From a virus (taxonomy: Duplodnaviria; Heunggongvirae; Uroviricota; Caudoviricetes), in IMG/VR virus record IMGVR_UViG_2563366854_000002, positions 1-25,932 of that record: DNA of 25,932 bases; one strand, 5' to 3'. A program made the position numbers and the translations under genes. This document shows positions 3,363 through 23,199 of this stretch, in pieces. Position 1 is the stretch's first letter. Every line of letters starts with the position of its first letter. The notes beneath the pieces are model-generated. The model was not told where the DNA came from. It saw only the letters and a program-made list of their open reading frames with translations, and did not search any database.

Positions 3363-3704
3363 ATGGCAATTAATGGCGCTGCAGCAACTGTTCCATTAAG
3401 CCCCGGTGAACGCCTGAATGGACTTAATCACATTGCAGAGTTAAGGGCGAAAGTTTTTGGCCTGAATATTGAGTCAGAGCTTGAGCGGTTTATTAAAGAT
3501 ATGCGTGATCCACGGGATATTAATTATGAACGAAATAAACGAGCACTGGCTGCTATATTCTTTATAGCAAAAATTCCAGCTGAACGTCATAGCATCAGCA
3601 TTAATGAGCTGACCACTGACGAAAAGCGGGAGTTGATTAAAGTAATGAATCATCTTCGTGCAGTGGTGAGCTTATTTCCCAGACGGCTAGCCATGCCGAA
3701 TTAA
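3363..3704 (+). CDS. Hypothetical early protein (113 aa)
   Basis: ATG at 3363 with GGGGGA 8 nt upstream; co-oriented in the early operon. Confidence 0.6.
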   Translation: MAINGAAATVPLSPGERLNGLNHIAELRAKVFGLNIESELERFIKDMRDPRDINYERNKRALAAIFFIAKIPAERHSISINELTTDEKRELIKVMNHLRAVVSLFPRRLAMPN

Positions 3705-4232: not shown

Positions 4233-5086
4233 GCACCATCCTGAAATGGGCGGGAAATAAAACCGCCATTATGTCCGAACTGAAAAAGCATCTTCCTGCT
4301 GGCCCGCGACTGGTTGAACCTTTCGCGGGTTCCTGTGCAGTGATGATGGAGACGGAGTACCCCAGCTATCTTGTTGCGGATATTAATCCTGATTTAATCA
4401 ACCTCTATAAAAAGGTTGCTGCTGATTGTGAATCGTTTATATCTCGCGCCAGAGTTTTATTTGAGATCGCAAACAGGGGGGGGGCTTATTACAACATAAG
4501 GCAGGAGTTTAATTACTCAACTGAAATTACTGATTTCATGAAAGCGGTATATTTCCTGTATCTCAATCGTCACGGTTACCGTGGTTTATGTCGCTATAAC
4601 AAGAGCGGGCATTTCAACATTCCCTACGGTAATTATAAAAATCCGTATTTCCCTGAAAAAGAAATTCGCGCATTTGCAGAAAAAGCCCAGCGAGCAACGT
4701 TTATCTGCGCCAGCTTTGATGAAACGCTGGCGATGTTGAAGGCGGGGGATGTGGTGTATTGCGATCCGCCGTATGACGGTACGTTTTCCGGCTATCACAC
4801 TGATGGTTTCACTGAAGATGACCAGTATCACCTGGCATCCGTTCTTGAACATCGGTCATCAGAAGGACATCCGGTCATTGTTTCTAACAGTGATACATCC
4901 CTGATCCGTTCGCTGTATCGCAATTTTACTCACCACTATATCAAGGTAAAACGCAGCATCGGTGTGGCAGCTGGCGAGGGTAAATCAGCAACAGAAATCA
5001 TTGCTGTTTCCGGGCCGCGCTGCTGGGTGGGATTTGATTATTCGCGTGGCGTGGATAGTTCTGCCGTGTACGGAGTACGTGCATGA
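4229..5086 (+). CDS. dam: DNA N6-adenine methyltransferase, Dam/D12 class (285 aa)
   Basis: Motif [10 protein letters not shown] and motif IV DPPY ([10 protein letters not shown]) seen in the translation; ATG at 4229 with GGAGG upstream; ATGA overlap with gene A at 5083-5086. Confidence 0.9.
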
Positions 5087-7497
5087 GCCATGCCGATATG
5101 AACAACTGCTGCGGCTTTAACGAGGCTGCCGCAGCGTTCTCATGGAACAGCCCGAAAAAGGCCATTAACCCTTATCTGGACCCGGCGGAAGTTGCGCCGG
5201 TTTCTGCGCTTTCAAACCTGATCGCTCTGTACGCTGCCGATAACGAACAGGAACACCTGCGCCGCGAGGCACTGAGTGATCAGGTCTGGGAGCGTTATTT
5301 CTTTAATGAATCCCGTGATCCTGTCCAGCGCGAAATGGAGCAGGATAAGCTCATTAGTCGGGCAAAGCTGGCGCATGAGCAGCAGCGTTTTAATCCAGAT
5401 ATGGTCATTCTGGCGGACGTCAATGCCCAGCCTTCCCATATCAGCAAGCCGCTGATGCAACGTATTGAATACTTCAGCAGCCTGGGCAGGCCAAAGGCTT
5501 ATTCCCGCTATTTGCGTGAGACGATTAAGCCATGTTTGGAGCGACTGGAGCATGTACGCGACAGCCAGCTATCTGCATCTTTTCGTTTTATGGCAAGCCA
5601 TGTAGGGCTGGACGGCCTGCTGATTCTGCCTGAAATGAGTCAGGATCAGGTGAAACGCCTGTCTACTCTTGTCGCTGCGCATATGAGCATGTGTCTTGAT
5701 GCCGCTTGTGGTGATTTGTACGCCACCGATGATGTTAAGCCAGAAGAAATCCGCAAGACATGGGAAAAGGTGGCAGCAGAAACCCTGCGACTGGATGTTA
5801 TCCCGCCTGCGTTTGAGCAACTTCGTCGGAAAAGAAACCGCCGTAAACCCGTGCCCTATGAACTCATTCCGGGTTCGCTGGCGCGTATGTTGTGCGCCGA
5901 TTGGTGGTACCGGAAATTATGGAAGATGCGTTGCGAATGGCGGGAAGAGCAGTTGCGTGCTGTTTGCCTGGTCAGCAAAAAAGCATCTCCCTATGTCAGC
6001 TATGAAGCCGTGATGCATAAACGTGAGCAGCGCCGTAAGTCGCTGGAGTTTTTCCGTTCTCATGAACTGGTGAACGAAGACGGCGACACGCTGGACATGG
6101 AGGATGTGGTAAACGCCAGCAGCAGCAACCCGGCGCATCGCCGCAATGAGATGATGGCCTGTGTTAAAGGTCTGGAGCTTATCGCAGAAATGCGCAGTGA
6201 CTGTGCCGTTTTCTACACTATCACCTGTCCGTCGCGTTTCCATTCCACGCTCAATAACGGCAGACCAAACCCGACCTGGACAAACGCGACGGTAAGACAA
6301 AGCAGCGATTATCTGGTCGGCATGTTTGCTGCATTTCGTAAGGCTATGCACAAAGCCGGGTTGCGCTGGTATGGCGTGCGGGTGGCTGAACCGCATCATG
6401 ACGGCACAGTTCACTGGCACCTGTTGTGTTTCATGCGCAAAAAAGACCGCCGCGCCATTACTGCATTGTTGCGTAAGTTTGCCATCCGTGAAGACCGCGA
6501 GGAGCTGGGCAATAACACGGGGCCACGCTTTAAGTCTGAGCTGATAAACCCGCGCAAAGGTACGCCAACAAGCTACATCGCGAAATACATCAGTAAGAAC
6601 ATTGACGGGCGTGGTCTGGCTGGCGAGATCAGCAAGGAAACGGGTAAATCCCTGCGTGATAACGCTGAATACGTTAATGCCTGGGCGTCTCTGCATCGTG
6701 TTCAGCAATTCCGCTTCTTTGGTATTCCGGGGCGTCAGGCTTACCGTGAACTTCGCTTGCTGGCTGGTCAGGCGGCAAGGCAACAGGGTGACAAAAAAGC
6801 AGGTGCGCCGGTACTGGATAACCCGCGTCTTGATGCCATTCTGGCTGCTGCTGATGCTGGTTGTTTTGCCACCTACATCATGAAGCAGGGCGGCGTACTG
6901 GTTCCCCGTAAATATCACCTCATCAGAACCGCTTATGAAATCAACGAAGAGCCGACCGCCTATGGCGATCACGGCATTCGTATTTATGGCATCTGGTCAC
7001 CCATTGCAGAGGGCAAGATCTGCACTCATGCAGTGAAGTGGAAAATGGTTCGTAAAGCCGTTGACGTTCAGGAGGCGGCAGCCGACCAGGGCGCTTGCGC
7101 CCCTTGGACTCGTGGCAATAACTGTCCCCTTGCTGAAAATTTGAACCAACAGGATAAAGATAAATCAGCTGATGGGGACACCAGAACGGACATTACCCGC
7201 ATGGATGACAAGGAATTGCACGATTACCTGCACAGTATGAGCAAAAAAGAGCGCCGGGAACTGGCAGCAAGGTTACGCCTAGTTAAGCTGAAACGGCGTA
7301 AAGACTACAAACAGCGAATTACAGATCATCAGCGACAGCAGCTCGTCTATGAGCTGAAGTCCAGAGGATTTGATGGCAGCGAGAAAGAGGTCGATTTACT
7401 CCTACGTGGTGGCAGTATTCCGTCAGGAGCAGGCCTGCGTATCTTCTATCGGAACCAGCGTTTGCAGGAAGATGATAAGTGGCGGAACCTGTATTAA
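5083..7497 (+). CDS. A: Phage replication initiation protein A (rolling-circle endonuclease, 804 aa)
   Basis: Translation has an HxH-type motif ([10 protein letters not shown]) and paired tyrosines ([11 protein letters not shown]) typical of P2 gpA-type initiators; position after the early operon. Confidence 0.9.
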
Positions 7498-8176: not shown

Positions 8177-8860
8177 CTATGATTGAAGGGTGACTTTTTT
8201 TAACGTATCAAAAACGATTTTCGTAAACTCATTCTCATTTCTAACATCAATATAAGCAAGGCCGCTATTGGTGATCTTGAGCTTACCGGAATATTCTAAT
8301 GAATTAACAGAGCAAACAAGCCTGTCAATTCTTATTTTTTTACCCTCTAATTCTTCTTTATAATACTTCCTAAGATCATTGCTGCCAATTATTTGCATTT
8401 TAGCTGTGGCGTAATCAGAAACTCTAACCCTTGAAATATCAAGTTGTGTTAAATTGATATTTACACTTGAAGATATTTCATTAAGCCAGTCTATAGGGTT
8501 TATGTCAATTTCTTCCAAACTAACACCTAAGCCAAGATTTTTTACCAAAGCCTGCGAAAAAGGCTTTAAAGTTCTGGGTGGGTTAGTAATCTGCATTACA
8601 GGAAGAGAGTCTAAAGCCACGCTAAAATTTGTGGTGCGATATTCGATTCTTTCAACGGTAGTTTCGCTTCCGTCAAAGCTTAATATTTTATCATGATAAA
8701 CAATACGCTCGACAAAGCGACCATTTGCAAAATCATGGCGTATTTTATCAAAAATGAACCCTTTCCCTTTATCCTCTGTAAAAGAATCAAGAGAAAGACG
8801 TCTAACGGCTGTTTCAAACTCAAGCCGTATGTTTAACTTAAGCCATTTAACCTTTTTCAT
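8177..8860 (-). CDS. Cargo operon gene 3: hypothetical protein (227 aa), no family recognised
   Basis: ATG at 8858-8860 with GAGGTGA upstream; overlaps gene 2 by 14 nt; AT-rich. Confidence 0.75.
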   Translation of the reverse strand: MKKVKWLKLNIRLEFETAVRRLSLDSFTEDKGKGFIFDKIRHDFANGRFVERIVYHDKILSFDGSETTVERIEYRTTNFSVALDSLPVMQITNPPRTLKPFSQALVKNLGLGVSLEEIDINPIDWLNEISSSVNINLTQLDISRVRVSDYATAKMQIIGSNDLRKYYKEELEGKKIRIDRLVCSVNSLEYSGKLKITNSGLAYIDVRNENEFTKIVFDTLKKVTLQS

Positions 8861-9926
8861 CTTCGTTCACCTCTGATCCTATTATTATATTATAGGCATT
8901 TTCAGCGGCGGACTCAATTAATTCACTAATATGTTTTTTCTCTTGTGCCGTTGCCGCGCGAATGGTTACATTGAAACCGTCTTCTTTTTGATTGTTTATA
9001 CCTTTAATTTGATAGGCAAAGTCACAGCATTTTTCTGAGTCTTTGAAAAATGCTTCGACGTTGATTCTGTCTCCAATTCCACTTGTCGGCTTTGAAGACC
9101 ATGCAATACGCCCGATATAATAACCTTTCTCATGTAGTTGAGAAAATATAGCTGAACTATTTACCCCTTCACCATTAAGGACGGCTTTCTTAACAAATCC
9201 GGTATCAATAGTTTCTTCCTTGTCTTCATCCTCACTAGCATCAGTACTGCGATTTAATTCGACTTTTGTTACGTCATCAGTCTCATAACCGCGTAGACCA
9301 TTCATTAATTCCTGAAAAAACTGACTTCGCAATGTAGGATCAGTTATTGCTAGTAATGATATTTCGAAGCGCTCGATAGGTTCGGACTTGATTTTAGATA
9401 GCTCGTTTTGCAAGCTCTCAATAACTTTTTTTGCCTCGGGGTTTTGAGGCATACGTACTTCAACTTTGTCAGCTCCAGGGCGAAGTTCTATTATAACATT
9501 CCGCTTGTCGATCTGACGTAATGCAGTTTTAGACAGGTCTATTTCTTCATATTTGTATTCTACTGTAAGCGAGCCATCTTTTTTAGCTACAATATTCAGG
9601 CTTTGACCTTTACTAGGGGAGCATGTTTTTTTTAGTGCTTCAGCAGCACTTTTTAATTCGGCCTGATTTGTTGAGGTTTGGAAGCTCACACTAGTAGTGC
9701 TTTCCCTTGGGTCATATGTTTTGACCAGTTTTTTTATGTGTTCTAATTCATTAAATCCGTGAGGAAGTTTGGATATTTCCTCGATTAGTATTTCCTTGTC
9801 GAGTTCTGGTGATAAAAACACACCTCGATTCAACAATAATTCATGCAACTTTGCAGCGGTTATCCTTTTATGATGTAATGCATCATAAATATTTTTATCA
9901 GTTGCGAAATATAGTTTTTTAGCCAT
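8847..9926 (-). CDS. Cargo operon gene 2: hypothetical protein (359 aa) with an acidic linker between two regions, no family recognised
   Basis: ATG at 9924-9926 with GGAG upstream; TAATG stop/start overlap with gene 1; AT-rich. Confidence 0.75.
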   Translation of the reverse strand: MAKKLYFATDKNIYDALHHKRITAAKLHELLLNRGVFLSPELDKEILIEEISKLPHGFNELEHIKKLVKTYDPRESTTSVSFQTSTNQAELKSAAEALKKTCSPSKGQSLNIVAKKDGSLTVEYKYEEIDLSKTALRQIDKRNVIIELRPGADKVEVRMPQNPEAKKVIESLQNELSKIKSEPIERFEISLLAITDPTLRSQFFQELMNGLRGYETDDVTKVELNRSTDASEDEDKEETIDTGFVKKAVLNGEGVNSSAIFSQLHEKGYYIGRIAWSSKPTSGIGDRINVEAFFKDSEKCCDFAYQIKGINNQKEDGFNVTIRAATAQEKKHISELIESAAENAYNIIIGSEVNEDEKG

Positions 9927-10927
9927 TATCGTTGCTCCATGCCGATTTGTTCAAGATTATATTCAACAACAATTTTGTCTGTCTTGTCGAAGTCAATTTT
10001 AAGAAAAAGTCTTTCATCCTCGCCTAAGAGCCAGTCTGTGCTGTATTTCTTTTTCGCTCTTTCAAAATGATGAATGGCATTTTCATTTGGGTGAATGTGA
10101 CAATGGCGTAATACGATTGGTTTACCTTCGGTTAATATCTGATAAGTTGATAACATATCAAAGAAGTAAACGAATTCGTCTACTGAATCCCCCGGTTGAT
10201 TGTAATAAACAACATATCCCTCAGGGTTTTTATCCCTGAGCCAACTGAAAGCCTCATGCTTTATTATAATGTATGGTGATGTTAATAATTCAATTGTTGC
10301 AGGTGTTGTCTGATTAATAGGGTGCTTTATTCTTGTTAGGGAAAGATCTGGATAATAATATGTGAACTTATCAGGTTGAGGAAGTTTGCCTGAACCAATT
10401 AACTTAGTTATGTCAGAAGATATGTTTATCAAATCTGATATTTTATAAGGGTCAAGCAAATGTAGTTTGATGTTTGGAGGGCAATTTATAGATGAGTGAT
10501 CTAATTTTTTTGTAATATTCTCATAGAAGTCTTTATCATATAAATTATCATGGTTATATAAGAATAATAACCCTCTTACGTTATAACCTAAAGAATCATC
10601 ATGAACATATTTCAATCGCCATTCTTCACTGACATTTGCACACTCGGTAGCTAAAGCAAGCGATGTTAAAGCTCCCTCGACTATTTTTTTCCCAATAGTA
10701 CCTTCTGCATAGCTTTTGAGGTCTGTGTTGAGATAGACCATTTCCTCCTCATATGGATCTATGTAGAAAAATACAACATCGCTTGGATGTGTTTTCTTGG
10801 AATGAGCCTCTTGGCAACAATCCCAATTCATGTCCGCTCTAGCGGCACGATCCCATTTGAACACTGAGAAAATATCATCAGAAATCTTACCCGCGACTCG
10901 TTGTATAGCCGAAGTCTCTCCACCCAT
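9926..10927 (-). CDS. Cargo operon gene 1: hypothetical protein (333 aa), no family recognised; has an R-x4-H spacing (RHCHIH) near the C-terminus
   Basis: ATG at 10925-10927 with AAGGAG 7 nt upstream; first gene of a three-gene minus-strand operon; AT-rich. Confidence 0.75.
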   Translation of the reverse strand: MGGETSAIQRVAGKISDDIFSVFKWDRAARADMNWDCCQEAHSKKTHPSDVVFFYIDPYEEEMVYLNTDLKSYAEGTIGKKIVEGALTSLALATECANVSEEWRLKYVHDDSLGYNVRGLLFLYNHDNLYDKDFYENITKKLDHSSINCPPNIKLHLLDPYKISDLINISSDITKLIGSGKLPQPDKFTYYYPDLSLTRIKHPINQTTPATIELLTSPYIIIKHEAFSWLRDKNPEGYVVYYNQPGDSVDEFVYFFDMLSTYQILTEGKPIVLRHCHIHPNENAIHHFERAKKKYSTDWLLGEDERLFLKIDFDKTDKIVVEYNLEQIGMEQR

Positions 10928-11077
10928 TTCAATCTCGCTCCTTTACAATTGCTGTGGCAATCTGCCTGAAAATCCATCTGACTTGATGAGTAATCTAACC
11001 ATATGGTTCGTATGCGTTTGTTGCATGACTATAGCGCATGAAAATGAATGATCGCAAAAGGATCGTTTTTGCTCAGT

Positions 11078-11104
11078 CCCGCCAGTTCTGGCGGGCTTTT
11101 ACTT
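11078..11104 (+). terminator. GC hairpin (cccgcca-gttc-tggcggg) followed by cttttactt, just left of cos
   Basis: Read directly; may be a terminator or part of the cos-flanking packaging region. Confidence 0.35.
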
Positions 11105-11145
11105 ATGTCATGCAGGTGCATGAAAACCACTACACAAAGCGGGCA

Positions 11146-11164
11146 GGCGTGGCGGGGATACGAG
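11146..11164. other. cos: Putative cos site (19-nt cohesive-end sequence GGCGTGGCGGGGATACGAG)
   Basis: Matches the P2 cohesive end as I recall it (GGCGAGGCGGGGAAAGCAC) at 15 of 19 positions, followed by GCGCGCGCTG as in the P2 left end; lies between the A-side region and portal Q, where cos is in P2-like prophages. Confidence 0.6.
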
Positions 11165-11232
11165 CGCGCGCTGTGCGTGGTTGTAAAAGGAAATTGTTTT
11201 CGGTATAACCACTTCCATTAGAAGGAGAATTT

Positions 11233-11478
11233 ATGAAAATTTTTGCAATAGTCATTACATGTATGCTGGCATCGATTGCAGGATTATGGCTTTATATGGA
11301 TCCTGGTTTTGATTCTATTGTTGCATTTTTGGCTGCAGTTAGCGCTTTAGCTGGATTACTTATCACTACAAAAAATAAATATAATTCTATGAGCCAATCA
11401 GTTGGTGATAATTCAACTGCTGTCCAGGCTAGAGGTGATATTAAAATTGATTGTATAAATACAGGTGATAAAAAATAA
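11233..11478 (+). CDS. Small membrane protein (81 aa, two predicted TM helices) with a C-terminal GDNSTAVQARGD motif
   Basis: ATG with AGGAG 7 nt upstream; hydrophobic segments IFAIVITCMLASIAGLWLY and IVAFLAAVSALAGLLITT; AT-rich. Confidence 0.7.
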   Translation: MKIFAIVITCMLASIAGLWLYMDPGFDSIVAFLAAVSALAGLLITTKNKYNSMSQSVGDNSTAVQARGDIKIDCINTGDKK

Positions 11479-11487
11479 GGAGGATAT

Positions 11488-12345
11488 ATGTTTAGTGATA
11501 AGCAAAAGCAACAAATAGGTAATAATTCGTATGCAATTCAAGCTGGAAATAATGTAAATGTTTCAGGGATGTCGTTTTCCGAGGTTAGAGAACTATTCAA
11601 CATTCTCTTCGAAAATCAGTTTCCAAAATTGAAAGATGTTGCTTATGCTGCAGCTCAAGAGAATGCAAAAGATTTTGAAGAGCGTGTCGTTTCGGATTTA
11701 ACAAAAAACGTTGATAGATTGATTATTGATAAATTTTGCGATCCGGACGTTCAGGCTACATTGACTGAGGCATTAAAGTCATCAGCCAGGAAGGGAAAGA
11801 AAGCTAATATGGATGTGCTTTCTCAGTTGTTAGTTGAACGAGTCTCCAATAACAATGACGATTTTAGAGATATAGTTTTAACGGAGGCAGTTACCGTCGT
11901 TCCCAAGTTAACACAGCAACAAATATCACTTATAACGATAGTTTTTCTTCTCAAGAATGTTGAGATCAAAGACCCTGTTAATGGTGTTCGATTGGATTTG
12001 TTGGAGCACAATTTTAGAAACTTTGAATCAATGTATACTAATGGGTTTAATTTGTCTCAAGCCCAGATATATCACATTCAATATGCAGGGGCTTGTTCAT
12101 GGAATACTTTTTTAGGGATGGATGTTGAAGACTATTTTATGAGTAAATATCCGACTGATATAAAAGATAAGAGTGCATATATTTCAAATCTTAAGTTAGT
12201 TGCCCCTCATGTGTCTGCATTTTTAGAAAAATTTTCAAAGAGCAACTATCAAGGAATTGAATTAACAAGTGTAGGGCAAGCAATTGCTCTGGCTGTTTTT
12301 TCAAGATACGTAGGAAGATTGGATTATAATATTTGGTTAAAGTAG
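11488..12345 (+). CDS. Hypothetical protein (285 aa), no family recognised; N-terminal GNNSYAIQAGNN motif resembles the C-terminus of the upstream small protein
   Basis: ATG with AAGGAGG 6 nt upstream; 9 nt downstream of the 81-aa gene; AT-rich. Confidence 0.75.
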   Translation: MFSDKQKQQIGNNSYAIQAGNNVNVSGMSFSEVRELFNILFENQFPKLKDVAYAAAQENAKDFEERVVSDLTKNVDRLIIDKFCDPDVQATLTEALKSSARKGKKANMDVLSQLLVERVSNNNDDFRDIVLTEAVTVVPKLTQQQISLITIVFLLKNVEIKDPVNGVRLDLLEHNFRNFESMYTNGFNLSQAQIYHIQYAGACSWNTFLGMDVEDYFMSKYPTDIKDKSAYISNLKLVAPHVSAFLEKFSKSNYQGIELTSVGQAIALAVFSRYVGRLDYNIWLK

Positions 12346-12370
12346 GGCATTATTTGCCCTACTTTATTAT
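12341..12370. terminator. Hairpin (agtagggc-attattt-gccctact) plus ttattat, a bidirectional terminator between the 285-aa gene and portal Q
   Basis: Read directly; overlaps the stop codon of the 285-aa gene and lies 3' of the convergent Q gene. Confidence 0.5.
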
Positions 12371-13398
12371 AATTCATATGGTTGGAAAGAAATTATTTCA
12401 TCACTCAACCATTCATTAATTTCTTTAATTCGCTTTTGCAGCGGTATCAATTCGTTACGGACAAACACCTTACTCGCCTTTTCCACATCCCCAAATCCCC
12501 CAACATTACTCGGCATAATCCCCATCATCTGCGGCGGAACGCGGTGTGCAGCCATCATGTCGTCTCGGCTCACGTTCTTAATGTTCAGAAACTCATCCTT
12601 TGCCGCTACCTCTGACAGCGGGATTATCTGAATCCCGTCCTTTTTGCCGTTGGGTGAATACATAAACAGGTTGCGGAAGTTGCCCGGTCCTTTAGCGCTT
12701 TTCATGGCCTGGCGGATGTTGTTCACGTCCTCCTGGTTCTGCGCGGCGTCGGTCATATACATGATGAACCCTGCATGACTGCCATTGATGTAGTATTTAC
12801 GCCGGAACAGCGTAGCGGACTCGTTCAGCAAGGCGGACGGAATGGCGGACAGATATTCCGGCAGGCCGTAAATTTCCTGGTTCAGGTCCGGCTCCATCAG
12901 GTGAAAGATACTGCCTTTAGTGAACTCGTAGGGCTGCGTGGTTAGACCGTATTGCACAAACCAGTAGGTGTCTAAGTCGATCCCGCGGCGGGTGTATTTC
13001 GCCAGCGATGGCTCCAGCGACAGAATGCCGCCGAGCCGGTTCGTTCGTTTCTCCAGATAAGCGTTACCAAACACCAAATAGTCCTGCACAAAGCGGCTGA
13101 ATGCCTGCTGGCTCAGTAATGGATGTGGGATAAATGTACTGGTCAGAATGTTGCGTTTGACGGCAATCGGTGAGCTGTGATGTACGGCGGCGCGATAGGT
13201 GCGAGCCAGCCCATCAAAACTGACCGGCGGTTCATACCATCTGTCCATCTGTACGCATTCCACATAGTCCAGCAGCTCGCGGCGGTCCAGTACCGGGATC
13301 GGATCGCCAAAGCTGAAAGCCTCGGCACTTACGCCTGTGTTTTTCGGTGCCGTAGCTTCTGTTGGCGTTGTGCTGGTTAAGGCTTCGGGTTCACTCAT
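12367..13398 (-). CDS. Q: Phage portal protein (P2 gpQ-like), 343 aa from ATG at 13396-13398
   Basis: Size and position next to the terminase large subunit; TGATG overlap with the P stop; the track start at 13401 is TTG. Confidence 0.9.
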   Translation of the reverse strand: MSEPEALTSTTPTEATAPKNTGVSAEAFSFGDPIPVLDRRELLDYVECVQMDRWYEPPVSFDGLARTYRAAVHHSSPIAVKRNILTSTFIPHPLLSQQAFSRFVQDYLVFGNAYLEKRTNRLGGILSLEPSLAKYTRRGIDLDTYWFVQYGLTTQPYEFTKGSIFHLMEPDLNQEIYGLPEYLSAIPSALLNESATLFRRKYYINGSHAGFIMYMTDAAQNQEDVNNIRQAMKSAKGPGNFRNLFMYSPNGKKDGIQIIPLSEVAAKDEFLNIKNVSRDDMMAAHRVPPQMMGIMPSNVGGFGDVEKASKVFVRNELIPLQKRIKEINEWLSDEIISFQPYEL

Positions 13399-15164
13399 CA
13401 AAAAATCTCCACAATATTGCTGGTATTGGCGGATTCGCCCTGCAGCGGTTCGTTAAACAGTGCGTGCATTGTTGCCCAGGCCAGATCGGCGTGGCTGGCT
13501 TCTTCGCTGCGGCTGGCTTCATAGGTCGGGCGGTTGCCGCTGGCGGTGGTTGCGCGCCGGATTGCCATAAATGACTGCGCTATGTCGGTGTGTCCGGCGT
13601 CAAACTCCAGACGGCGGTGACTGATAATGTCGTAGGCTTTGAGTACTAGGGCATTTTTAACATTGGGGTTGTAGACAAACTCCCGGACGGCAGGAAAGAA
13701 CGCTTTCACGTTCTCATAAACCCCGTGACCGACGCCTGTCGAGTCGATGCCGATATAGGTCACGTTGTACTGCTCGGTCAGTTTTTTGATTGCATCAGCC
13801 TGGGCGCGGAAGTCCATCCCGCGCCACTGGTGACGCTCAAGAATGCGAAACTTACCGCCTGGCACGGCTGGCGGTGCCACCACCACGCATCCGGCACTGT
13901 CGCCGTTCTGCGTACCTTTTGCCGGGTCATAACCGATCCACACTTCGCGCCAGCCAAACGGGCGCAGGGCCAGAGCATGAAAGTCGGTCCAGACTTCCCA
14001 ACTGTCCACCATGCACGCCTGCAGCTCGCTGAGCGGAAACACGGACGCGAGATCGTCCACAAACTCGCACATCAGCAGGTTCTGGTATTCGTCCGGGCTG
14101 TACTCCATGCGCAACTGGTCAAGGTCGAACAGGTTGCAGCCGCCGCGCACCGCATCTTCCACGGTGACTATCTGGCGGTATTGCCCGTCTGCGCACAGCA
14201 GGCCGGGGGCCAGATTGCTGTGGGACAGGTCGATGTCCACCTTATCGGCTTTGTTGCGCCCACGGTTGAACAGTGCACCGGACCAGAACGGATAAGCACT
14301 GTGTGTCAGGCTGGATGGCGTGGAAAAATAGGTTTGTCGCCATTTCTTGTGAATAGCCATACCAGAAGCCACTTTGCGCAGCTCCTGGAATTTCGGTATC
14401 CAGAAATATTCATCCAGATACAGATTGCCGTGGTAACTCTGGGCCGTGCGGGCATTGGTGCCGAGGAAATACAGTGTGGCCCCGTTGGGAAGCACCATCG
14501 GATCGCCTTTCAGCTCCACCTCCACTTCTTTGGCAAAGTCGATGATGTACTGTTTGAAAACGTGGGCCTGTGCCTTACTGGCAGAAAGGAAAATCTGGTT
14601 ACGTCTGGTTAGCAGGGCGTCAATCAGGGCTTCACGGGCAAAATAGAAGGTCGCGCCGATCTGGCGTGACTTCAGCAGGTTGCGGATGCGGTTGGTTTTT
14701 CCGGCTTCCCACCAGTGGCGCTGGTAGTTGAACATGGAGGAATGGAAGATTTCTTCTAGCTTCTCAATCTGTTCATCGGTGAAGACATTTTTTTCCGGCT
14801 GACGGCGCGGGCCTTTGTTGCGGTTGGCGACGTTAGGGTTTAAGTCGGCTTCGTTGCCGCCATTGTTAAACTTGCCGATCCGCGCGTGGCGCTCAGACTG
14901 GCGCGCCAGCAGGTCAATCTCTTTGAAATCTTTCCCTTCTTTGTGCTCCTTCATAATGAGCTGGCAGTAGCGTGCGGCGGTGGTGAGCTGCATCTGATCC
15001 AGCGGCCCATAGTCACCCCACTTGTCGCGTTTTTTCCAGCTGTGAACGGTTGCAACTTTCTCGCCCAGCATTTCAGCAATGCGGGCTACGCGGTATCCCT
15101 GAAAGTACAGCAGCATGGCCTGCCGACGGGGATCGAGATCTGCGGGTGTCAGTGTGGTGTTCAT
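13398..15164 (-). CDS. P: Terminase large (ATPase) subunit, P2 gpP-like (588 aa)
   Basis: Size, position between portal and scaffold genes, and P2 synteny. Confidence 0.9.
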   Translation of the reverse strand: MNTTLTPADLDPRRQAMLLYFQGYRVARIAEMLGEKVATVHSWKKRDKWGDYGPLDQMQLTTAARYCQLIMKEHKEGKDFKEIDLLARQSERHARIGKFNNGGNEADLNPNVANRNKGPRRQPEKNVFTDEQIEKLEEIFHSSMFNYQRHWWEAGKTNRIRNLLKSRQIGATFYFAREALIDALLTRRNQIFLSASKAQAHVFKQYIIDFAKEVEVELKGDPMVLPNGATLYFLGTNARTAQSYHGNLYLDEYFWIPKFQELRKVASGMAIHKKWRQTYFSTPSSLTHSAYPFWSGALFNRGRNKADKVDIDLSHSNLAPGLLCADGQYRQIVTVEDAVRGGCNLFDLDQLRMEYSPDEYQNLLMCEFVDDLASVFPLSELQACMVDSWEVWTDFHALALRPFGWREVWIGYDPAKGTQNGDSAGCVVVAPPAVPGGKFRILERHQWRGMDFRAQADAIKKLTEQYNVTYIGIDSTGVGHGVYENVKAFFPAVREFVYNPNVKNALVLKAYDIISHRRLEFDAGHTDIAQSFMAIRRATTASGNRPTYEASRSEEASHADLAWATMHALFNEPLQGESANTSNIVEIF

Positions 15165-17218: not shown

Positions 17219-17869
17219 ATGAGCCTGAGTCCCGCACGGCAGCATCGCCTGCGCGTTCAGGCTGAACAGGCCGCCCGTGAGGGCGGCAGCGTTCGCCACG
17301 CGTCGGGCTATGACCTGATGCTGCTGCAACTGGCGGAAGACCGCCGCCGTCTCAAGGGCGTTCAGTCCACGGTCAAAAAAGCGGAAATCAAGGTGGAGCT
17401 GCTGCCGAAGTACGCCGCCTGGGCGGAGGGTGTCCTGGCTGCCGGAGGCGCTCAACAGGATGACGTGCTGATGTACGTGATGCTGTGGCGCATTGATGCC
17501 GGAGATTATGCCGGGGCGCTGGAGATAGGGCGTCATGCCCTGCGTCATGGCTGGGTGATGCCGCTGGGTAACCGCAACGTGCAGACCGTGCTGGCAGAGG
17601 AAATGGCAGACGCAGCCCAGAGTGCAATGCTTGCCGCCACCGGGTTTGATGCCGATCTGTTGCTGCAGACGCTGGAGCTGACAGACGGTCTGGATATGCC
17701 GGACCAGTCACGGGCGCGTCTGCATAAAGCGATTGGCGCTGTCCTGAGTGAAAGCAATCCGGCTTCCGCCCTTAATCATCTCAACCATGCGTTACAGCTC
17801 GATCCCCGCTGTGGCGTGAAAAAAGACAAACAGCAGCTGGAGCGCAGACTGCGCAATGACAGCCGCTGA
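17219..17869 (+). CDS. M: Terminase endonuclease (small) subunit, P2 gpM-like (216 aa)
   Basis: Position after N and P2 synteny. Confidence 0.85.
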   Translation: MSLSPARQHRLRVQAEQAAREGGSVRHASGYDLMLLQLAEDRRRLKGVQSTVKKAEIKVELLPKYAAWAEGVLAAGGAQQDDVLMYVMLWRIDAGDYAGALEIGRHALRHGWVMPLGNRNVQTVLAEEMADAAQSAMLAATGFDADLLLQTLELTDGLDMPDQSRARLHKAIGAVLSESNPASALNHLNHALQLDPRCGVKKDKQQLERRLRNDSR

Positions 17870-20299: not shown

Positions 20300-20738
20300 A
20301 CTGCAGAAGGTGGACGACTGGCTTAGTGCCTTACTGGCGAATCTGGAACCAGTCGCAAGAAGCCGCATGATGCGCCAGCTGGCGCAGGAACTGCGCCGGA
20401 CACAGCAGCAGAATATCAGGATGCAGCGCAATCCAGATGGCAGCAGTTATGAACCGCGCAAGGTCACGGCGCGCAGTAAAAAAGGCCGCATCAAACGTCA
20501 GATGTTTGCAAAGCTGCGCACCACCAAATACCTGAAAACTGCCGCCAGCGCCGATTCTGCCAGCGTGCAGTTTGAAGGTAAGGTGCAGCGCATTGCCCGC
20601 GTTCACCATTATGGCCTGCGCGATCGCGTCAGCCGCAAAGGACCGGAAGTGCGTTACGCAGAGCGTCGTTTGTTGGGTCTTAATGGTGAGTCTTACGTTC
20701 TAACTCTTGATATATTGAATAGATTCCTTCTGTCTTGA
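20292..20738 (+). CDS. S: Tail completion protein S (P2 gpS-like, 148 aa) with a replaced C-terminal ~18 aa encoded by AT-rich inserted DNA
   Basis: Conserved gpS body (..IARVHHYGLRDRVSRKGPEVRYAERRLLGL) then an unrelated tail NGESYVLTLDILNRFLLS where the GC content drops. Confidence 0.8.
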   Translation: MAELQKVDDWLSALLANLEPVARSRMMRQLAQELRRTQQQNIRMQRNPDGSSYEPRKVTARSKKGRIKRQMFAKLRTTKYLKTAASADSASVQFEGKVQRIARVHHYGLRDRVSRKGPEVRYAERRLLGLNGESYVLTLDILNRFLLS

Positions 20739-21486
20739 ATTCACCATATGCCCAATGAATTGCATTTTTTTGTTCAGTCAGAATATATTTCCTAACTTTT
20801 TTAGAATAGTGAATGGTCAGTATAAAACCCAAAGAAATCCATAATAGAATAAATATGGTTGTTGGGGCAAAGGAATAGATAAAGAATTTGTCTTTAACGA
20901 AATTCTTGACTTCTTCATCAATGTAAGCATTCCCTTCATCAGTGGTTAGTAGTTTACAAAGAATTTCTTTATGTTCGATAGTTAATGATTTGTACTTCTC
21001 TGTACTGGCAGAGGATGACTCTTCGCAATCATCCTTTGATATTTCCCAATCAGGAGTGGTTAATATTGTAGCTGCAGTCGCCAGTTTTTTTGACATATAA
21101 AATGATTCACCGGATTTTATCCAATAAAGCAATGTGCTATTTGGTGGGGTTCTAATGGCTTGGATGAAAACTGGACCAAAAATATAAATTGCACACAAAA
21201 AAAGAAGTGAAAAGAGAACCGTGATTGATTTTTCAGCCCATGTGATAGTAGGCAGCCTTTTTAATGATATTCGTATAAGAAAAAAATTCAATATAAACGC
21301 AGGTATTCCTGATTTTTTCAAAATTACATCATGAGATTTTCTATATTTGAATAGTGCTCTTATAACTATCGTCACCAAAGTTATAACAGCTCCAATAATG
21401 GAAATCCATGCGGCAAGTGCCGCTGCCGGGGTGTTTAAAAATTCAGCATTAAATATATTAGAACTTATTGGATTCATAACACTCAT
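20680..21486 (-). CDS. Polytopic membrane protein (268 aa), unknown function, in an AT-rich insert between S and V
   Basis: ATG at 21484-21486 with AGGTGGA upstream; several hydrophobic helices; 19 G+C in the 60 nt of line 21181; opposite strand to the flanking late genes. Confidence 0.65.
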   Translation of the reverse strand: MSVMNPISSNIFNAEFLNTPAAALAAWISIIGAVITLVTIVIRALFKYRKSHDVILKKSGIPAFILNFFLIRISLKRLPTITWAEKSITVLFSLLFLCAIYIFGPVFIQAIRTPPNSTLLYWIKSGESFYMSKKLATAATILTTPDWEISKDDCEESSSASTEKYKSLTIEHKEILCKLLTTDEGNAYIDEEVKNFVKDKFFIYSFAPTTIFILLWISLGFILTIHYSKKVRKYILTEQKNAIHWAYGEFKTEGIYSIYQELERKTHH

Positions 21487-21589
21487 TTATCCACCTATTG
21501 GTTGTTTTTTATCCTTTTATCAATTTGTACCATCGATACCACAATTTGCAAGAAGTTATAAACAAGTTTTCAGCTGTCATCATATATCT

Positions 21590-22768
21590 ATGAACGCACA
21601 ACTAACCGAAATCATGCGCCTTATCACCAATCTGATCCGCATAGGTGTAGTCACCGAAGTGGACCGGGAAAACTGGCTTTGTCGGGTGAAAACGGGCGAC
21701 CTTGAAACCAACTGGATTAACTGGCTGACGCTGCGCGCGGGTATCACCACTGTGCTGGACAACCGCCTGATGGGGCTTACGCTGACGGATAACCGGGGCT
21801 TTGAAGCGGACCAGCTTGATCTGGAGCTGGACGACGCTGACGGAAAAATCGTGCTGCCGCGCCGTGGTGCGGTCATTACGCTGGCGCTGGGCTGGAAGGG
21901 GCAGCCGCTTTTCCCGAAAGGGGCATTCACGGTGGACGAGATTGAACACACTGGCGCACCGGACCGCCTGACTATCCGGGCGCGAAGCGCTGATTTTCGG
22001 GAAACGCTGAATACCCGTCGTGAAAAATCGTGGCACAAGACCACGGTCGGGGAAGTGGTGAAGGAAATAGCTGCGCGTCACAAACTGAAGATGGCACTGG
22101 GTAAAGACCTGTCGGATAAACCCGTGGAGCATATAGACCAGACTAATGAGAGTGACGGCAGTTTTTTGATGCGGCTGGCGCGCCAGTACGGTGCCATTGC
22201 ATCGGTGAAAAATGGCAATCTGTTATTCATCCGGCAGGGACAGGGCAAAAGCGCCAGCGGTAAACCACTGCCGGTGATCACTATCATACGTAAGGACGGC
22301 GACAGTCACCGCTTTACCCTGGCAGATCGCGGAGCTTACACGGGGGTAATTGCCAGCTGGTTGCATACCCGCGAACCCGCGAAGAAAGAAAGCACTACGG
22401 TGAAGCGTAAGCGCAGGACTAAGAAGCAGAAGAAAGAGCCGGAAGCGAAGCAGGGCGATTACCTGGTGGGGACGGATGAAAACGTGCTGGTACTTAATCG
22501 CACTTATGCCAACCGGAGCAACGCCGAACGAGCGGCAAAAATGCAGTGGGAACGCCTGCAACGCGGCGTTGCGTCATTCTCGCTACAACTGGCGGAAGGG
22601 CGGGCAGATCTCTACACGGAAATGCCTGTGAAGGTCAGTGGTTTTAAACAGCCGATAGATGATGCGGAATGGACTATTACCACCCTGACGCATACTGTCA
22701 GCCCGGATAACGGTTTTACGACCAGTCTGGAGCTTGAAGTGAAGATTGATGATTTCGAAATGGAATGA
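21590..22768 (+). CDS. Chimeric in-frame ORF: N-terminal ~48 aa of baseplate spike V fused to late control/tail protein D (392 aa)
   Basis: The first ~48 aa (MNAQLTEIMRLITNLIRIGVVTEVDRENWLCRVKTGDLETNWINWLTLRAG) match the gpV N-terminus pattern; the rest (LTLTDNRGFEADQLDLELDD...FTTSLELEVKIDDFEME) matches gpD; no W, J, I, H, G, F, E, T or U genes are present. Confidence 0.8.
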   Translation: MNAQLTEIMRLITNLIRIGVVTEVDRENWLCRVKTGDLETNWINWLTLRAGITTVLDNRLMGLTLTDNRGFEADQLDLELDDADGKIVLPRRGAVITLALGWKGQPLFPKGAFTVDEIEHTGAPDRLTIRARSADFRETLNTRREKSWHKTTVGEVVKEIAARHKLKMALGKDLSDKPVEHIDQTNESDGSFLMRLARQYGAIASVKNGNLLFIRQGQGKSASGKPLPVITIIRKDGDSHRFTLADRGAYTGVIASWLHTREPAKKESTTVKRKRRTKKQKKEPEAKQGDYLVGTDENVLVLNRTYANRSNAERAAKMQWERLQRGVASFSLQLAEGRADLYTEMPVKVSGFKQPIDDAEWTITTLTHTVSPDNGFTTSLELEVKIDDFEME

Positions 22769-22858
22769 TTCTTCGCAATGGAGAACTTTTAAGTTTTCAA
22801 AATGGAATAATGCGGTATCATTATTGTGAATTTAGCAAAAATGGGGAGAACTCGAAAA

Positions 22859-23077
22859 ATGATGATTTGCCCACTGTGTGGAAGTGCCGCCCATACTCGC
22901 AGCAGTTTTCAGGTATCTTCATTGACCAAAGAGCGTTACAACCAGTGCCAGAACATTAACTGCAGCCATACTTTTGTTACCCATGAAACTTTTGTTCGTT
23001 CGATTGCAACGCCAAAAGAGTCAAATCCGGTTCAGCCGCATCCAATGAAATCAGGACAGGTGGCGCTCTCTCTTTGA
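22859..23077 (+). CDS. ogr: Ogr-type zinc-finger late-gene activator (72 aa)
   Basis: CPLCGSAAH...CQNINCSHTF four-Cys motif and length match P2 Ogr / K-12 OgrK; ATG at 22859. Confidence 0.85.
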   Translation: MMICPLCGSAAHTRSSFQVSSLTKERYNQCQNINCSHTFVTHETFVRSIATPKESNPVQPHPMKSGQVALSL

Positions 23078-23151: not shown

Positions 23152-23199
23152 GGCAACAAAAAACCCATCAACCTTGAACCGAAATGGCGGGGTTGATGG
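23152..23199 (-). terminator. Probable Rho-independent terminator of ybjL (10-bp stem cccatcaacc/ggttgatggg, T-run on the minus strand)
   Basis: Inverted repeat read directly; AAAAAA at 23155-23160 on the plus strand gives the U-tract for the minus-strand transcript. Confidence 0.6.

Follow-up and report, generated by a model that had tools for sequence, protein, structure and literature searches.

A probable cos site of the P2/186 family in a tail-less prophage of Escherichia coli HSP425

The sequence analyzed here (the window) is a viral DNA of 25,932 nt and is 100% identical to E. coli strain HSP425. The element is a P2/186-family (Peduoviridae) prophage of E. coli inserted between rcdA and ybjL. 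In its left part, the genes are ordered as integrase, CI, CII, Fil, methylase, gpA (the replication endonuclease, 5083-7497, + strand), a DinI-like gene and three leftward cargo genes, after which the putative cos is reached. The right part continues from cos with two rightward cargo genes, gpQ, gpP, scaffold, capsid, gpM, head completion and lysis genes. The portal protein, a gpQ homologue (12367-13401, - strand; Pfam Phage_portal), has an intact ORF that is transcribed toward cos. The gpP homologue (13398-15164, - strand), the terminase large (ATPase) subunit and the partner of cos in trans, matched Pfam Terminase_6N, Terminase_6C and Terminase_5. The gpM homologue (17219-17869, + strand), the terminase small/endonuclease subunit, matched Pfam Phage_term_smal, and RefSeq names the corresponding HS protein terminase endonuclease subunit. 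A cognate gpP/gpM-type terminase is therefore encoded by the same element. The prophage has kept its integrase, SOS-responsive switch, replication, lysis, head and terminase genes, as well as cos. The sequence under study is the 19-nt cohesive-end sequence GGCGTGGCGGGGATACGAG, located at 11146-11164 on the + strand.

E. coli HS phage 1 resembles the window in its integration site (rcdA-ybjL), its gene order and an identical 19-mer. It differs in having unrelated cargo on both sides of cos and a full tail module, and in being demonstrably inducible. The head proteins gpN and gpO were identical to those of the HS phage at 349 of 352 and 276 of 277 positions, respectively, and all head/packaging proteins other than the portal were 98-99.8% identical to those of this inducible phage. 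For the portal, 288/344 positions were identical by global alignment. Its divergence was concentrated in roughly the last 45 residues and in the DNA downstream (12367-12500, - strand). As the rest of the protein is nearly identical, the boundary of cargo exchange seems to fall within gpQ, in its 3' end.

The earlier note on this DNA had described an element without tails but with intact terminase, portal and capsid genes, and both descriptions were borne out. A 473-aa ORF (21347-22768, + strand) consists of the N-terminus of gpV and the C-terminus of gpD, and this fusion replaces about 10.3 kb. Alignment with the HS phage placed the V-D junction at 21739-21743, with a 5 bp overlap, and the missing ~10.3 kb comprised tail/baseplate genes (W through U). 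Among 5426 complete E. coli genomes, only HSP425 gave a match across the junction, so the tail deletion looks recent, and probably is. The terminase, portal and capsid ORFs were uninterrupted, and the scaffold and head-completion ORFs were too. The lysis genes were also uninterrupted, and ogr lies within the homology block shared with the HS phage. The ORF at 22765-22959 was considered as ogr and rejected; the HS alignment puts ogr at about 22859-23077. The 14-bp att core reported for HS phage 1 (AACAAAAAACCCAT) was found once in the window, at 23155-23168 (+ strand), after ogr and before ybjL; this copy is presumably attR. A sister prophage at the same site in E. coli H3 (NZ_CP028732) carries a different deletion at 27220-27913, with a truncated gpM fused to lysC; in addition, its tail-fibre genes are frameshifted and its tape-measure/gpD is truncated. 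Because its internal deletion differs, the same prophage lineage has decayed independently in H3.

Cargo genes lie on both sides of cos. The three leftward genes (8177-10927, - strand) matched PADLOC Hp3, Hp2 and Hp1 (PDLC03006, PDLC03005 and PDLC03004) along the whole of each gene (E-values, 2e-157 to 2.7e-248), whereas a Pfam search of the three gave no match. In P2-like phages, cos lies between gpA and gpQ in a hotspot of variable, often anti-phage genes (Rousset et al. 2022, PMC9122126). The profile matches suggest that these three genes form an anti-phage system, candidate or known, in this cos-proximal hotspot. The two rightward genes between cos and the portal gene (11233-12345, + strand) encode an 81-aa protein and a 285-aa protein of the LPO_1073/Vpar_1526 family (NCBIfam NF045477, 3e-72). 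PADLOC and Pfam searches of these two proteins gave no match. Because they are placed in the defence hotspot, they are a candidate uncharacterised anti-phage module. A further cargo site lies between the gpS-like gene and gpV, where a DUF6216 gene that the HS phage lacks has been inserted on the opposite strand (20680-21486, -).

The 19-mer was compared with known cohesive ends. The P2 end given in the earlier note, GGCGAGGCGGGGAAAGCAC, was right: the sequence is bases 1-19 of NC_001895, where it is annotated cosL. The P4 end has the same 19 bases as P2, and the end of phage 186 is GGCGTGGCGGGGAAAGCAT, annotated cos in its record. The earlier note had also given the agreement with P2 as 15 of 19 positions. 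That figure did not hold for P2 or P4, both of which agreed at 14/19, but it is true for 186. A P2-like sequence had further been claimed to follow the 19-mer. The likeness stood, since CGCGCGCTG lies directly 3' of the 19-mer in the window and TGCGCGCTG in P2 (8/9 match), but the sequence quoted for it, GCGCGCGCTG, takes in the last G of the 19-mer itself. The conserved 5' part of P2-family ends, GGCGWGGCGGGGA, was present in the window 19-mer at 13/13 positions. Position 11146 scored highest in the window for both reference 19-mers (P2 and 186), and no other window position exceeded 13/19 to either reference cohesive end.

To estimate chance agreement, windows were simulated with a first-order Markov model. 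Agreement with P2 at 14/19 was expected 0.6 times per window and was seen in 40% of simulated windows, and a 15/19 match to 186 was expected 0.03 times per window. Because a match of 14/19 to P2 is expected this often, the bare 19-mer is by itself weak evidence: it is suggestive, and its P2 match is at chance level. We consider the flanking homology to be decisive for the identity of the site as cos.

The ends of P2, 186 and P4 were circularised and then aligned to the window. The pairwise alignment with the P2 and 186 cos regions, which had been proposed as a check, was in register, and P4 aligned in the same way. The register to the physical ends of these phages was kept from about -125 to +26. 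Within this region, a 55-bp core at 11117-11171 comprises 29 bp on the left (TGCATGAAAACC...AAGCGGGCA), the 19-mer and 7 bp on the right (CGCGCGC). A 55-bp core of P2/P4 cos is attributed to Ziermann & Calendar 1990 in a citing paper (PMC5694545). The window core was identical to P2 at 41/55, to 186 at 43/55 and to P4 at 44/55 positions, ungapped and in register.

The exact 19-mer was found in at least 120 IMG/VR viral contigs, and 115 distinct sequences, anchored on the 19-mer, were used to analyze conservation. Conservation jumped at -125/-124 (11021/11022) and dropped after +25/+26 (11171), and outside this interval the identity was about 0.25, that is random, on both sides. BLAST gave the same picture. 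The 143-150 nt around the site matched 84-90 P2-like phage records, the lowest E-values being 1e-49 to 1e-56 (best, 2e-56), and both the phage records and the HS phage had the block 11022/23-11171 in common with the window. Per-position conservation and the BLAST block together define a conserved cos island of ~150 bp (11022-11171). It is asymmetric: ~125 bp precede the cut on the gpA (mature right-end) side, and only 7 bp follow the 19-mer. The island was the sole homology between non-homologous segments, both against P2-like phage records and against the HS prophage, and its ends match junction coordinates seen in E. coli genomes. The cos island has likewise been reported as the sole homology of P2-like phages and P4 satellites (Rousset et al. 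2022, PMC9122126).

Among the 115 loci, the 55-bp core was nearly invariant. From -42 to +26, the window departed from the family consensus only at 11135, with a variant that is present in 33/115 loci. The left arm was variable family-wide (median, 23 differences over 152 nt), and the nearest of the 115 islands differed from the window island at 9/152 positions. Given this median, the window left arm is not an outlier within the family.

The left arm contains (T)GCAT motifs on the + strand. Upstream, TGCAT is located at 11022-11026 (-124), CGCAT at 11035-11039 (-111) and a degenerate TGAAT at 11045-11049 (-101). A further TGCAT is located at 11117-11121 (-29), all distances being counted from the top-strand cut. 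Phages 186 and P4 have TGCAT at exactly -124, -111, -101 and -29, and P2 has it at -123, -111, -101 and -29. The DNA between the GCAT motifs differs among the phages, whereas the motif positions are the same, and these positions also dominate among the 115 loci. The background for TGCAT was 0.17 per random 140-nt slice of the window. The window thus has the left-arm architecture of the family, with GCAT at -124, -111 and -29 and a degenerate motif at -101. The A at 11047, within TGAAT, is common to only 4/115 loci. The motifs are candidate recognition repeats for the terminase (gpM), and we infer from their conservation that phased GCAT motifs may be a defining functional feature of P2-family cos.

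A GC-rich hairpin, CCCGCCA GTTC TGGCGGG followed by CTTTT, was found by a terminator scan at 11078-11100 (+ strand). It has the features of a rho-independent terminator: a 7-bp stem (6 GC pairs), a 4-nt loop and CTTTT after the stem. Among the 115 loci, the stem was conserved and the 4-nt loop was freely variable. The phage 186 record has the terminator t95b at the equivalent place, and P4 has a hairpin there with a different stem sequence. Covariation within the 19-mer allele group was almost none, so the support for the structure comes solely from the conserved-stem/variable-loop pattern and from the different hairpins of P4 and 186. At 11077, at the hairpin base, the window has T, a base found in 0/115 related loci; 99/115 have G. 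This T removes a possible eighth stem pair. The island also contains a weak promoter-like match on the minus strand. A search of 10800-11400 for known structured RNAs gave no Rfam match at E<=1.

The gene context was analyzed in 119 independent loci. The earlier note had placed cos between the A-side genes and Q, and this position was confirmed: the window has the site between the end of gpA (7497) and gpQ (12367-13401, - strand), and in 111/119 loci the 19-mer had a homologue of gpA on its left (+), one of gpQ on its right (-), or both. In the remaining 8/119, the flanks were too short to tell, and a contrary gpA/gpQ arrangement around the 19-mer was found in none of the 119. The top strand of the 19-mer reads toward gpQ, matching the orientation of P2-family cos. 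The distance from cos to gpQ ranged from 156 to 3534 bp across the loci and was 1202 bp in the window, where it is occupied by cargo. One contig, IMGVR_UViG_3300011853_000021, has two complete inverted cos islands at 3447-3465 (-) and 6704-6722 (+), each facing outward to a portal gene, with an ISL3 transposase and a DinI gene between them. Either an IS has rearranged this DNA or the contig is a chimera assembled through the conserved island.

The cos of HS phage 1 has been mapped to 5'-GGCGTGGCGGGGATACGAG-3' at HS 926016-926034 (Zünd et al. 2021, Microbiome, PMC8008629, Suppl. Table 4). The mapping used read starts and PhageTerm after mitomycin C treatment (PMC8008629); the termini are thus a supplementary-table result of read-start analysis, not of classical end sequencing. 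We confirmed the 19-mer at the published coordinate, HS 926016. From -53 to +26 (80 bp), the HS phage and the window differed at one position, and over the island they differed at 22/149 positions, mostly from -125 to -54. The two gpP proteins were identical at 587/588 positions and the two gpM proteins at 215/216. Because of this identity, the window terminase is effectively the enzyme already shown to cut at GGCGTGGCGGGGATACGAG.

A published account of Salmonella phage SEN8 (PMC5427200) also gives the identical 19-mer as cos. The first base of the SEN8 record is the equivalent of 11146 and the last base is the equivalent of 11145, and the 19-mer is annotated cos. The Escherichia phage Cartapus record annotates the same 19-mer as a P2-homologous cos. 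For both phages, cos was assigned by annotation and homology. SEN8 (a Fels-2-type Felsduovirus) and Cartapus share with the window the 19-mer and a homologous left arm with hairpin and GCAT motifs, but they belong to other hosts and genera, and their DNA past +26 is unrelated. The start of the Cartapus record was rejected as a physical end, as it lies 32 nt upstream of the 19-mer and was the authors' choice. The record boundary of Midge, which has a 186-type allele, was rejected as well, as it falls 10 nt inside the 19-mer. The exact 19-mer is therefore already known as a published, mapped cos allele of the Fels-2/HS-phage type, and it is in the textbook position.

Taken together, 11146-11164 is very probably the cos of a P2/186-family prophage. 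The cohesive-end or nicking region (+ strand) is identical to the cos of HS phage 1 and SEN8, and it matches 186 at 15/19 and P2/P4 at 14/19 positions. With the nick polarity taken from the 186 record annotation, the predicted nicks lie 5' of 11146 (top strand) and past 11164 (bottom strand), giving 5'-protruding 19-nt ends. This copy of cos is also likely to be fully functional, a claim we make with somewhat less confidence.

Established P2/186 biology and the record annotations suggest a mechanism. Once SOS induction has led to excision and replication, the left arm of the island would be recognised by the gpM/gpP terminase, with the phased GCAT motifs at -124, -111, -101 and -29 as the likely recognition elements. 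The terminase would make staggered nicks at the two predicted positions (top strand, 5' of 11146; bottom strand, after 11164) and so leave 19-nt 5' overhangs. One genome length would then be translocated into the gpN procapsid via the gpQ portal. Rightward transcription coming from the early/cargo side is probably stopped by the hairpin (11078-11095) short of the cut site. Given the loss of the tail genes, DNA-filled tailless heads would be the expected product. With head, packaging and lysis genes uninterrupted and tail genes deleted, such packaging into tailless heads after induction is plausible, and the earlier note's view that packaging might still occur is a reasonable one. A further step would be that the tail-less prophage still excises, replicates and fills capsids as a 'heads-only' element, its heads being rescued by the tails of a co-resident or superinfecting P2-like phage, or its capsids and terminase being supplied to P4-like satellites sharing cos. 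We regard this extension as unlikely.

The strongest alternative is that the site is a homologous but inactive relic of cos in a decaying prophage, where substitutions in the left arm prevent efficient terminase binding. Selection on virion production may have lapsed, as ~10.3 kb of tail genes are lost and the H3 sister is deleted differently. The third GCAT motif reads GAAT, as in 4/115 loci, the G>T at 11077 is private to the window, and even the nearest of the 115 islands is 9/152 positions away. These differences fall in an arm that is variable throughout the family (median, 23/152), in which the window is no outlier. Neither the 19-mer nor the 55-bp core strays far, if at all, from the family consensus, 11135 (33/115 loci) being the sole departure from -42 to +26. 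In addition, the terminase, portal and capsid ORFs are intact, and the tail deletion, present in 1/5426 genomes, is probably recent. We therefore consider a relic quite improbable.

A second alternative is that the island is mainly a terminator/promoter block or a recombination anchor for the exchange of defence cargo, with packaging starting elsewhere. It contains a terminator-like hairpin and a weak minus-strand promoter-like match, hypervariable cargo lies on both its sides, and it is the sole homology shared by P2-like phages and P4 satellites. Such roles are compatible with cos and do not substitute for it. The physical ends of P2, 186 and P4 and the read-start ends of the HS phage all fall in the island, the SEN8 record starts at the 19-mer (its cos by annotation), and no second site in the window exceeds 13/19 to either reference end. 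We give this reading hardly any credence. A chance resemblance of a GC-rich 19-mer to the P2 end, without a packaging role, would fit the 0.6 matches of 14/19 expected per window, but it was rejected as extremely improbable on the ~150 bp of homology in register with three phages of determined ends, the exact 19-mer in at least 120 viral contigs with the same gene context, and its identity to the mapped HS phage 1 cos.

The assignment of 11146-11164 as cos is of practical value mainly for annotation, because cos sets where the prophage genome physically ends and where its packaging originates. It also marks the boundary of two cargo (defence-hotspot) segments, and it indicates a head/packaging module that is still matched to its recognition site though the tail genes are gone. 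The architecture around cos is textbook P2/186 biology, with nothing unexpected and no new question opened.

Among the known systems, phage 186 (Eganvirus) is like the window in its end (15/19), its core (43/55), its GCAT positions and the hairpin t95b in the same place. The early region of the window is also 186-like, with CI, CII, Fil and DinI/Tum-like genes. They differ in the last six overhang bases (ATACGAG in the window, AAAGCAT in 186), and the 186 portal gene is ~180 bp from cos, without cargo between. P2 shares the position of cos between the old/tin (gpA) side and gpQ, as well as the gpP and gpM terminase architecture. The packaging substrate of P2 is circular monomers. The P2/P4 ends differ from the window in the base at position 5 and in the 3' third of the overhang, and P2, unlike the window, is without a clear hairpin. 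In P4, cos lies beside psu/gop and the element has no terminase of its own. A P4-like satellite cos was rejected for the window, which encodes a full head and packaging module, and a psu or gop homologue next to this 19-mer allele was found in none of the 119 loci.

The cos of lambda has no sequence relationship with the window site, its overhang is 12 nt rather than 19 nt, and the small subunit of lambda terminase belongs to a different family. The similarity is in working only. In lambda cos (cosQ-cosN-cosB), terminase also makes staggered nicks to produce 5' cohesive ends, and its recognition region is likewise asymmetric, with repeated motifs on one side of the nick site.
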